A stretch of 64,000 nucleotides of DNA, from IMG/VR virus record IMGVR_UViG_3300035208_002115; one strand, 5' to 3'. The translations under genes and the position numbers were made by a program. The notes below the pieces were generated by a model. The model was not told the DNA's origin, made no database searches, and saw only the letters and a list, made by a program, of their open reading frames with translations. Each line of letters starts with the position of its first letter. Within the stretch, counting starts at the first letter, position 1. Positions 1,837-3,014 of the stretch are shown in pieces. The DNA is from a virus. Lineage: Duplodnaviria; Caudoviricetes.

Positions 1837-1844
1837 TACATTTG
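1837..1844 (+). promoter_or_regulatory. Bacteroidota-type sigma70 -7 element (TACATTTG)
   Basis: Matches TAnnTTTG; lies directly before the small-ORF cluster starting at 1849. Confidence 0.5.
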
Positions 1845-1848
1845 TGGT

Positions 1849-2016
1849 ATGCCAAATAAGAATAAAATAATAATAACATTTAATCCAGTAGATTCTTCTA
1901 TATATGATTACATGGATAGCTGGAGAAATTATATAAATGATGAAAATAAAAAACGGCTTGAAAAATTAAGAGCTGAAAGAAAAGCTAAAATAAAAGAAAT
2001 TTTTAAAAATATATAA
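1849..2016 (+). CDS. 55-aa protein with C-terminal RxxKI tag (not in ORF track)
   Basis: Manual translation MPNKNKIII...ERKAKIKEIFKNI*. Confidence 0.7.
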   Translation: MPNKNKIIITFNPVDSSIYDYMDSWRNYINDENKKRLEKLRAERKAKIKEIFKNI

Positions 2017-2037: not shown

Positions 2038-2193
2038 GTGGAAGAAGAATATTTAAAAACATATAATAAAAGAACCAGTAAAATATTTTCTAATTTAAAA
2101 GAATATTATCGTTCAGATGAAAAATCCTTCAAAATAATTATTTTATTAGAACGATATTTAAAGTTAAAAAGTATTTTCAAAAATTTTGATTAA
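2038..2193 (+). CDS. 51-aa protein with C-terminal RxxKL tag (not in ORF track)
   Basis: GTG start; MEEEYLKTY...ERYLKLKSIFKNFD*. Confidence 0.6.
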   Translation: MEEEYLKTYNKRTSKIFSNLKEYYRSDEKSFKIIILLERYLKLKSIFKNFD

Positions 2194-2198
2194 TTTTT

Positions 2199-2363
2199 AT
2201 GCCAGCATTAATAAGACTTTCAGATTTACAATCTGTCCAACCATTATCAAAACCGAGTGGACATTTACATTATATAGATTTTTTTTATGAAACTATATCA
2301 GAAAAAAGGAAGAAGAAATTAAACGAAATATTTCCAGAATTTAAAAATGAAAACAAAAAGTAA
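2199..2363 (+). CDS. 54-aa protein: major-capsid-like fragment plus RxxKL tag (not in ORF track)
   Basis: MPALIRLSDLQSVQPLSKPSGHLHYIDFFYETISEKRKKKLNEIFPEFKNENKK*; SVQPLSKPSG resembles gp23 VQPMxxPTG. Confidence 0.65.
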   Translation: MPALIRLSDLQSVQPLSKPSGHLHYIDFFYETISEKRKKKLNEIFPEFKNENKK

Positions 2364-2556
2364 ATCTAAATTACAACAAATAAATAATTCAATTAATACA
2401 ACAGTGTCAATACCAACTGAACATTTTAATGTTACAGTTAGAGCAATTTATCCTTATGATTATCCAGATTTTAATTATTTTAAAAGAAAAGAAAAACGTG
2501 AACAACGATTAAAAAAATTAAGTGGATTATTCCCAGATTTTAAAGAAAATGTTTAG
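2347..2556 (+). CDS. Small protein with RxxKL tag
   Basis: Ends REQRLKKLSGLFPDFKENV. Confidence 0.7.
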   Translation: MKTKSKSKLQQINNSINTTVSIPTEHFNVTVRAIYPYDYPDFNYFKRKEKREQRLKKLSGLFPDFKENV

Positions 2557-2836
2557 TCACGAATTATATAATTCAGTTATATCACAGATTGGGGACACTC
2601 CGATTGACGGAGGTGTATATTTACCACTTGATACTTTTTCAGATGTTGATTTTAATAGTATAATTTTTCCAGTGGCGATGAAAATTGCTGCTCAAACAAT
2701 AGGTCTGAATTTAATATCAGTTCAGCCTATGGAACATGGGGTTGATTATGAAAAAATAAAACGAGAAAGAGTACGTGAACAACGAAAGAAAAAAATAGAA
2801 GAAATATTTCCTGAAATGAAAAAACATGAAAAGTAA
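2522..2836 (+). CDS. Major-capsid-like fragment plus RxxKI tag
   Basis: IFPVAMKIAAQTIGLNLISVQPM resembles the gp23 segment preceding VQPM; ends RKKKIEEIFPEMKK; start may be the Met at 2549. Confidence 0.65.
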   Translation: MDYSQILKKMFSHELYNSVISQIGDTPIDGGVYLPLDTFSDVDFNSIIFPVAMKIAAQTIGLNLISVQPMEHGVDYEKIKRERVREQRKKKIEEIFPEMKKHEK

Positions 2837-3014
2837 TTTCACTCTTAATATAATACAAAAAGCTATCCGAGATGGATTTACAACTTTAACAATTGATTGT
2901 GAATTAAATTATGACCAACTATGGTTAAAAGTAAAACGGGAAATTATTCAGGAACATAGAAAACAAAAAATAGAAGAACTATTTCCAGATATAAAAAATA
3001 ATAATAAACTATGA
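2826..3014 (+). CDS. Small protein with RxxKI tag
   Basis: Ends HRKQKIEELFPDIK. Confidence 0.7.
   Translation: MKSNFTLNIIQKAIRDGFTTLTIDCELNYDQLWLKVKREIIQEHRKQKIEELFPDIKNNNKL

Follow-up and report, generated by a model that had tools for sequence, protein, structure and literature searches.

Capsid, portal, polymerase and RecA-fold proteins of phages are known immune triggers (PMC9712102; bioRxiv 10.64898/2026.01.04.697583). One of the known cases closest to the locus described here is that of Gol, a 29-residue stretch of the T4 major capsid protein gp23, which binds domains II and III of EF-Tu and activates the Lit protease. Gol is the most conserved part of gp23, its binding to EF-Tu was proposed for all T4-like phages, and the free Gol peptide activates Lit in T4 rather than blocking it (PMC3014915). 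The N-terminus of gp23 directs fusions to GroEL (PMC3012670). Folded capsid surfaces are recognised by other systems: binding of CapRel-SJ46 was modelled on the P-domain sheet, the spine helix and the A-domain loops (PMC9712102), and binding of Avs7/8/10 on the folded A-domain (bioRxiv 10.64898/2026.01.04.697583). DSAD1 is an example of a phage protein that acts at the sensor, DSR2, in competition with a structural trigger (PMC11087589).

The window analysed here, a stretch of 64,000 nucleotides, corresponds to positions 221370-285369 of a 675,678-bp phage record (G000; 27% G+C). It contains a cassette of small genes on the + strand, two of which, ORF1 (54 aa; 2199..2363) and ORF2 (95 aa; 2549..2836), carry a capsid-derived piece followed by a C-terminal tag. 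The results below support the conclusion that both proteins are true fragments of a gp23-family capsid protein, joined to this tag, which do not fold and are under selection. The phage has its own capsid gene (568 aa; 543309-545015; Pfam Gp23 E 3e-27). The cassette lies approximately 320 kb from this gene and the other head genes, and thus ORF1 and ORF2 are outside the head gene module.

The best annotated matches of the capsid protein were in LR756501 (61.7%), LR756502, LR745206 and LR756504, phages of 634-735 kb belonging to the Mahaphage clade, for which Bacteroidetes hosts were predicted (PMC7162821). On the basis of these capsid matches the host is probably a member of the Bacteroidota. 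The record is classed as a provirus. Genes for EF-Tu, GroEL or GroES/gp31 were not detected in it, so it seems to include little or no attached host DNA. In T4, capsid folding requires gp31.

Capsid-derived pieces of ORF1 and ORF2

Both ORFs, together with the peptide that the original prediction had quoted from each, are present in the DNA, and the T4 gp23 peptide quoted beside them is genuine. The start of the second ORF needs correction: the frame 2522-2836 exists, but ATG 2549, where the database gene call and three homologues begin, is the likelier start. From this codon ORF2 consists of a variable N-terminal part, a capsid-derived helix and strand, a linker and the tag.

Tag-free heads of the 170 tagged proteins of the phage were compared with a profile of 61 full capsid proteins. 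The head of ORF2 scored 33.3 bits (E 2e-10) and that of ORF1 9.2 bits (E 0.004), whereas the best of 3,400 shuffled heads reached 8.8 bits. With Pfam Gp23 (PF07068; cut-off 24.4 bits) ORF1 gave 14.4 bits (E 0.025) and ORF2 gave no hit. The ORF2 match covers residues 103-132 of the phage's own capsid protein. Its core, residues 39-61 of ORF2 (2663..2731, +), corresponds to own capsid residues 109-131 and approximately to T4 gp23 95-117 in the Gol region; 16 of the 23 residues, and 71% of the DNA, are identical to the own capsid (hhalign 95.5%, E 1.5e-8).

The capsid-derived loop and strand of ORF1 (residues about 9-31; 2223..2291, +) match profile positions 107-129 and are equivalent to T4 gp23 109-132 (hhalign E 0.0024, with a probability of only 12%). 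Taken alone, this sequence match is only marginal; the orthologues make it clear. One orthologue scored 16.9 bits against the 61-capsid profile, and across four orthologues all 7 consensus positions of the segment were invariant, compared with 3 of the 11 other positions (p = 0.004). Significant local matches to gp23-family capsids thus exist, in the case of ORF1 when its orthologues are taken into account, and they agree with the proposal that the two ORFs cover overlapping parts of one capsid segment (approximately 95-117 for ORF2 and 109-132 for ORF1 in T4 gp23 numbering).

No other 25 residues of the capsid family are as conserved as the copied stretch (98% column identity). When detached copies were combined in a profile, it aligned with T4 gp23 93-134 (probability 93.7%, E 1.8e-7), which places this module at the position equivalent to Gol, whose boundaries we take to be residues 94-122. 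ORF1 and ORF2 together span the Gol region; neither covers all of its 29 residues, and many relatives carry the whole module.

At 54 and 95 aa the two proteins are, as had been expected, too short to fold as capsid. AlphaFold2, run on ORF2 with a four-sequence alignment, predicted two unconnected helices (pTM 0.27), a model consistent with a motif carrier. The fold of a relative that has both the spine helix and Gol had a pLDDT of 38.5, too low to be informative. Searches of PDB sequences returned nothing relevant for ORF1, for ORF2 or for the alignments of ORF1 and ORF 2826; in the ESM Atlas there was no feature hit, and structural matches did not exceed TM 0.44.

Cassette layout, tag and pieces of other phage proteins

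A TAnnTTTG box at 1837..1844 (+), 4 nt 5′ of the ATG of ORF 1849, is of the Bacteroidota sigma-A -7 type (consensus from PMC9723704) and is the probable promoter of the cassette. It occupies the same position in L086, L147 and G001, the last being a complete 640-kb genome. The host-type promoter of the original prediction is present as a sequence box, but it does not stand directly ahead of ORF1: it precedes ORF 1849, two genes upstream. Throughout the phage genome TAnnTTTG boxes are enriched 15-29 nt ahead of gene starts. A second, small peak 3-5 nt ahead of start codons (11 genes, this cassette included) suggests leaderless transcripts. The late-promoter motif was too AT-rich to separate early from late genes. 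Because tags ending in I-F-D/E/G generate TAnnTTTG by themselves, an association of the tag with the box was not relied on.

The cassette begins with two tagged mini-genes, of 55 aa (1849..2016, +; orthologues in L086 and G001) and 51 aa with a GTG start (2038..2193, +). Between ORF1 and ORF2 there is a third, of 69 aa (2347..2556, +), which has a conserved short aromatic motif and is absent from G001. The heads of these three matched none of the larger phage proteins of the genome. The final codons of ORF2 overlap the start of a further tagged mini-gene of 62 aa (2826..3014, +).

Upstream of the cassette, at a distance of 420 bp, an Acb1-like 2H phosphoesterase is encoded at 899-1432 (Pfam PF23474, E 8e-7). 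In three assemblies this gene is found shortly before the cassette, and its leader resembles the T4 capsid targeting sequence. It is followed by a 128-aa ORF (1438-1824) with a weak RNA 2′-phosphotransferase-like match (PHROG 5470, E 0.09), possibly an ADP-ribosyltransferase fold; in L147 this ORF is missing between the Acb1-like gene and the cassette.

The RxxK[IL]-type ending described in the original prediction was found in both ORFs, as R-x-x-K-L-x-x-I-F in ORF1 (2307..2333, +) and R-x-x-K-I-x-x-I-F in ORF2 (2783..2809, +). The tag is real: R-x-x-K-[IL]-x-x-[IL] occurs within 25 residues of the end in 170 of the 1,129 called genes of the phage, as against 4.5 in shuffled tails. The last 20 residues of ORF2 are identical in three orthologues despite synonymous changes. 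All six Arg codons occur at the invariant Arg, which indicates that the tag is conserved as protein, and an origin as DNA repeat is unlikely.

Residues 2-28, the head of ORF 2826, resemble the helix and strand after the Walker A motif of UvsX/RecA. A profile of its orthologues matched the UvsX-like protein encoded at 461839-463071 of the phage (15.6 bits, E 2.2e-4; best reversed control 8.6), and hhalign gave 84.6% (E 6.8e-6) with an invariant Glu; against the PDB the alignment had no RecA hit. With this gene adjoining ORF2, the design is not specific for the capsid. The G001 counterpart of ORF 2826 is a tandem double fused in one ORF.

Elsewhere in the genome, the tag was found on pieces of DNA polymerase B (Pfam E 5e-5), the prohead protease, the scaffold and the capsid spine helix, and pieces of portal and capsid were found without it. 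Nine tagged mini-genes stand beside the capsid gene (L089:1000-3260; G000 541000-543260) with pieces of the capsid spine region, protease, scaffold and polymerase; five of the nine are kept in G001. An untagged 111-aa gene directly upstream of the portal gene (L089:9833-10168; G000 549832-550167) copies portal residues 276-326 with 65% identity. Further stand-alone pieces, at 200182, 162320, 368050, 504077, 415016 and 586527 of G000, derive from the capsid (the Gol helix, the N-terminus and two C-terminal parts), a scaffold repeat and polymerase B motif A.

The portal fragment and the fragment array adjoin head genes, and the copied capsid piece is the best conserved stretch of its family. This might be taken to mean that the piece inserts itself into capsid subunits as they fold, poisoning a competing phage, or that it tunes assembly of the phage's own head or docks cargo on the prohead; some of the small proteins are indeed closer to foreign capsids than to their own. 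We regard such interference with, or modulation of, assembly as decidedly unlikely. Among the capsids tested, none is closer to ORF2 than that of its own phage, which it should therefore poison, the cassette stands far from the head genes behind a host-type box, and pieces of UvsX and polymerase have no place in head assembly.

Selection and spread of the design

Both genes occur in five other assemblies, and the order of the cassette is kept in L086, L087/L088, L147, L148 and G001. An assembly artefact was rejected, since orthologous cassettes come from independent samples. The possibility of a capsid pseudogene was rejected as well: the genes are intact in six assemblies bar one tag frameshift, the pN/pS of the ORF2 piece is low, and the order of the two pieces is reversed relative to the capsid gene. 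The exception is an ORF1 orthologue seen in two samples (L087:171-305 and L088:150-284), in which a run of nine A shifts the tag out of frame, possibly by slippage or phase variation.

Selection was estimated as uncorrected pN/pS from few sites and from sequence pairs that are not independent. By this measure the capsid piece of ORF2 had a pN/pS of 0.32 (95% CI 0.16-0.62) and the N-terminal flank 0.91 (0.68-1.27; p = 5e-5 per column), with 0.34 for the tag and 0.71 for the linker; thus the sequences indicate purifying selection on the capsid piece and not on the flank. In ORF1 the overall value was 0.59, that of the tag 0.38 and that of the strand 0.67 (CI 0.30-1.20, not significant). For comparison, the small genes as a group had about 0.6, the neighbouring gene 3011 had 0.16 and the core of the true capsid 0.03. 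The small genes are therefore maintained, yet vary much faster than the capsid they copy.

When viral contigs were searched with ORF2, 79 of the 80 loci proved to be capsid genes, either complete or truncated at the end of a contig, hit through the near-invariant motif; the remaining one encodes a 148-aa mini-capsid. In a mini-capsid family (L006:3848-4294, L122 and L123), a tag-like helix is inserted into the first ~130 capsid residues and parts the two halves that are found singly in ORF2 and ORF1. No viral contig was retrieved by a pattern search with ORF1. Of 23 viral loci identified with a DNA pattern of the module, 21 were small ORFs other than capsid genes; one was a cut ORF and one encoded a capsid-like protein. 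Two exact-pattern scans of 185,579 prokaryote genomes did not find the module, which, the patterns being exact, is weak evidence for its absence from hosts.

A profile of the detached piece, which was built from the small proteins and hence favours them, matched 1,786 protein clusters at E up to 0.001. Sorting covered the best 150 of these: 147 are at most 320 aa long, and inspection by eye gave about 10 capsids, some of them cut by the contig end, and about 140 small non-capsid proteins. Among the best 150, the tag described here is present in 19; further carriers have different short tags or unrelated domains. Recurring tags of the other carriers (P0010-P0159) include an acidic DPYGEE-W, FKFLRG and MKFERG leaders and C-terminal amphipathic helices, which suggests that each phage clade may have its own address tag. 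Three GenBank megaphages (LR756502, LR745206 and LR756504) have such genes, a count from which the second matches of LR756501 and LR756500 were excluded.

Outside the module, an additional piece of capsid, protease, scaffold or portal was detected in 47 of 176 sequences (a set that includes 13 fragment genes of the phage studied here and a few true capsid fragments) and in 1 in the reversed control. Several proteins combine the spine helix, the N-terminal helix, the C-terminal strand or protease motifs, often in permuted order. Judged by these sequences, the combination of a signature fragment with a tag is a genuine design, subject to selection and widely distributed among giant phages.

Fast evolution could also have a trivial cause, if pieces of core genes were captured ahead of a tag that is the sole functional part and the heads are tolerated while they slowly decay. 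The pN/pS gap to the neighbouring gene, the near-neutral N-terminal part of ORF2, the variable gene content of the cassette and the loss of the ORF1 tag in one lineage would all fit such debris of gene birth. We nevertheless find this explanation very improbable, as purifying selection is specific to the piece, consensus positions are invariant, and the 1,786 clusters include many carriers without this tag as well as permuted multi-piece proteins.

The capsid cores of G000 and G001 differ at 1 of 23 positions. The orthologous small protein of G001 matches its own capsid at 12 of 23 positions and the capsid of another clade at 17 of 23, and the same module was found in two phages whose capsid is of another type. 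That the module is independent of the capsid type of its phage suggests a common partner outside the phage.

Such a partner could be a conserved host protein that is no defence sensor. If the piece had retained the function of Gol, it would bind EF-Tu or GroEL as the N-terminal region of T4 gp23 does (PMC3014915, PMC3012670), and the small proteins would adjust translation or keep chaperone capacity free for folding of the capsid; the alignment with T4 gp23 93-134 and the lack of EF-Tu, GroEL and GroES genes in the phage are in line with this. We judge it unlikely, because pieces of UvsX, polymerase, portal, protease and scaffold built in the same way are left unexplained, the helical half of the region is missing from ORF1 and the strand half from ORF2, and only 5 of the 23 core residues are shared between T4 and this clade.

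A bait proposal and its relation to known systems

ORF1 and ORF2 each encode a short non-globular protein composed of one signature piece of an essential phage protein and a shared C-terminal helix. The sequences show their ancestry, selection and modular design, whereas any function is a proposal. The reading that we favour, quite possible though still short of probable, is that ORF1 and ORF2 serve to bait host factors that sense phages, the tag being the adaptor. They would be members of a phage-encoded library of bait proteins. If a host sigma-A promoter reads the cassette, as the box suggests, the baits can appear early. The capsid piece would bind whichever host factor ordinarily reads this segment on freshly synthesised capsid protein; this could be the sensor of a defence system, or else EF-Tu or another host protein under the watch of such a system. 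The bait would occupy this factor without giving the full trigger, and the tag would take the complex to a common partner (a protease, the membrane or a sequestering site). ORF1 and ORF2 would present overlapping halves and drifting sequence variants of one epitope.

Several sequence features argue for baits: selection is focused on the copied piece, this piece has parted from the sequence of the phage's own capsid, unrelated carriers are many, multi-piece proteins are permuted, the same tag carries pieces of UvsX, DNA polymerase B, protease and scaffold, and an Acb1-like gene lies near the cassette. As the copied capsid, portal, polymerase and recombinase are known triggers, a bait fits better than a role limited to the capsid. 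On the other side, the capsid sensors characterised so far read folded surfaces; since divergence leaves only conserved motifs recognisable, part of the agreement with known immune triggers reflects ascertainment; the activation of Lit by free Gol peptide implies that a simple copy could act as a trigger; and, at the sequence level, the ORF1 strand lacks significant selection and the ORF1 tag is frameshifted off in two assemblies. We know of no reader of this linear capsid segment other than EF-Tu/Lit.

A broader version of the bait proposal, which we consider doubtful, makes the tag a universal adaptor box. The ~170 tagged proteins would then be interchangeable substrate receptors, much as F-box proteins are for a ubiquitin ligase. 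Some of them would offer signature pieces of capsid, portal, protease, scaffold, polymerase and recombinase of the phage as bait, so that giant phages would command a renewable, genome-wide library with which to capture and eliminate the immune sensors of the host.

In the published literature, with subscription journals mostly outside coverage, we found no description of a signature fragment joined to a shared tag, nor did Pfam, PHROG or the Atlas have a family for this gene design. Mimicry-based counter-defence is the likeliest explanation of the design, which could be a new kind of system. If the proteins are baits, their sequences amount to a phage-written map of the linear core-protein features recognised by hosts, and each is a ready pull-down probe for undiscovered Bacteroidota sensors. 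The old proposal that Gol is conserved by its binding to EF-Tu in all hosts of T4-like phages would become directly testable.

The sequence ancestors of the 23-33 residue pieces are the gp23-family capsid protein (PF07068) and its paralogue gp24. A full PF07068 capsid has the HK97 fold and 400-600 residues, whereas ORF1 and ORF2 have 54 and 95; the pieces make up <7% of the capsid chain, have no P-, A- or E-loop domain and no predicted fold. Work on CapRel-SJ46 and Avs7/8/10 shows that the classes of protein copied here are triggers, but these sensors bind extended folded surfaces (mainly the spine helix, the P-domain sheet or the A-domain) which ORF1 and ORF2 lack. They are accordingly poor candidate sensors, and CapRel, the model in the original prediction, is not supported as such, a 23-residue unfolded piece being unlikely to present the folded surfaces that it senses.

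The T4 capsid targeting sequence of internal proteins is N-terminal, cleaved and present on a handful of late proteins. It is likewise a short tag shared by unrelated phage proteins; the tag described here differs in being C-terminal and basic and in its presence on ~15% of genes.

Gol, with EF-Tu and the Lit protease of e14 (PMC3014915), involves the same capsid segment and likewise a short linear piece active alone. There, however, the piece is part of the capsid protein and triggers defence, while here it is a separate tagged gene in a phage of another host phylum, identical to T4 at 5 of 23 residues. As baits, ORF1 and ORF2 would act most like DSAD1, a small phage protein that takes the trigger's site on DSR2 and provides a working model for a decoy (PMC11087589). 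In that paper DSAD1 is not presented as derived from the sequence of its trigger; it acts singly against a single sensor and carries no shared tag.
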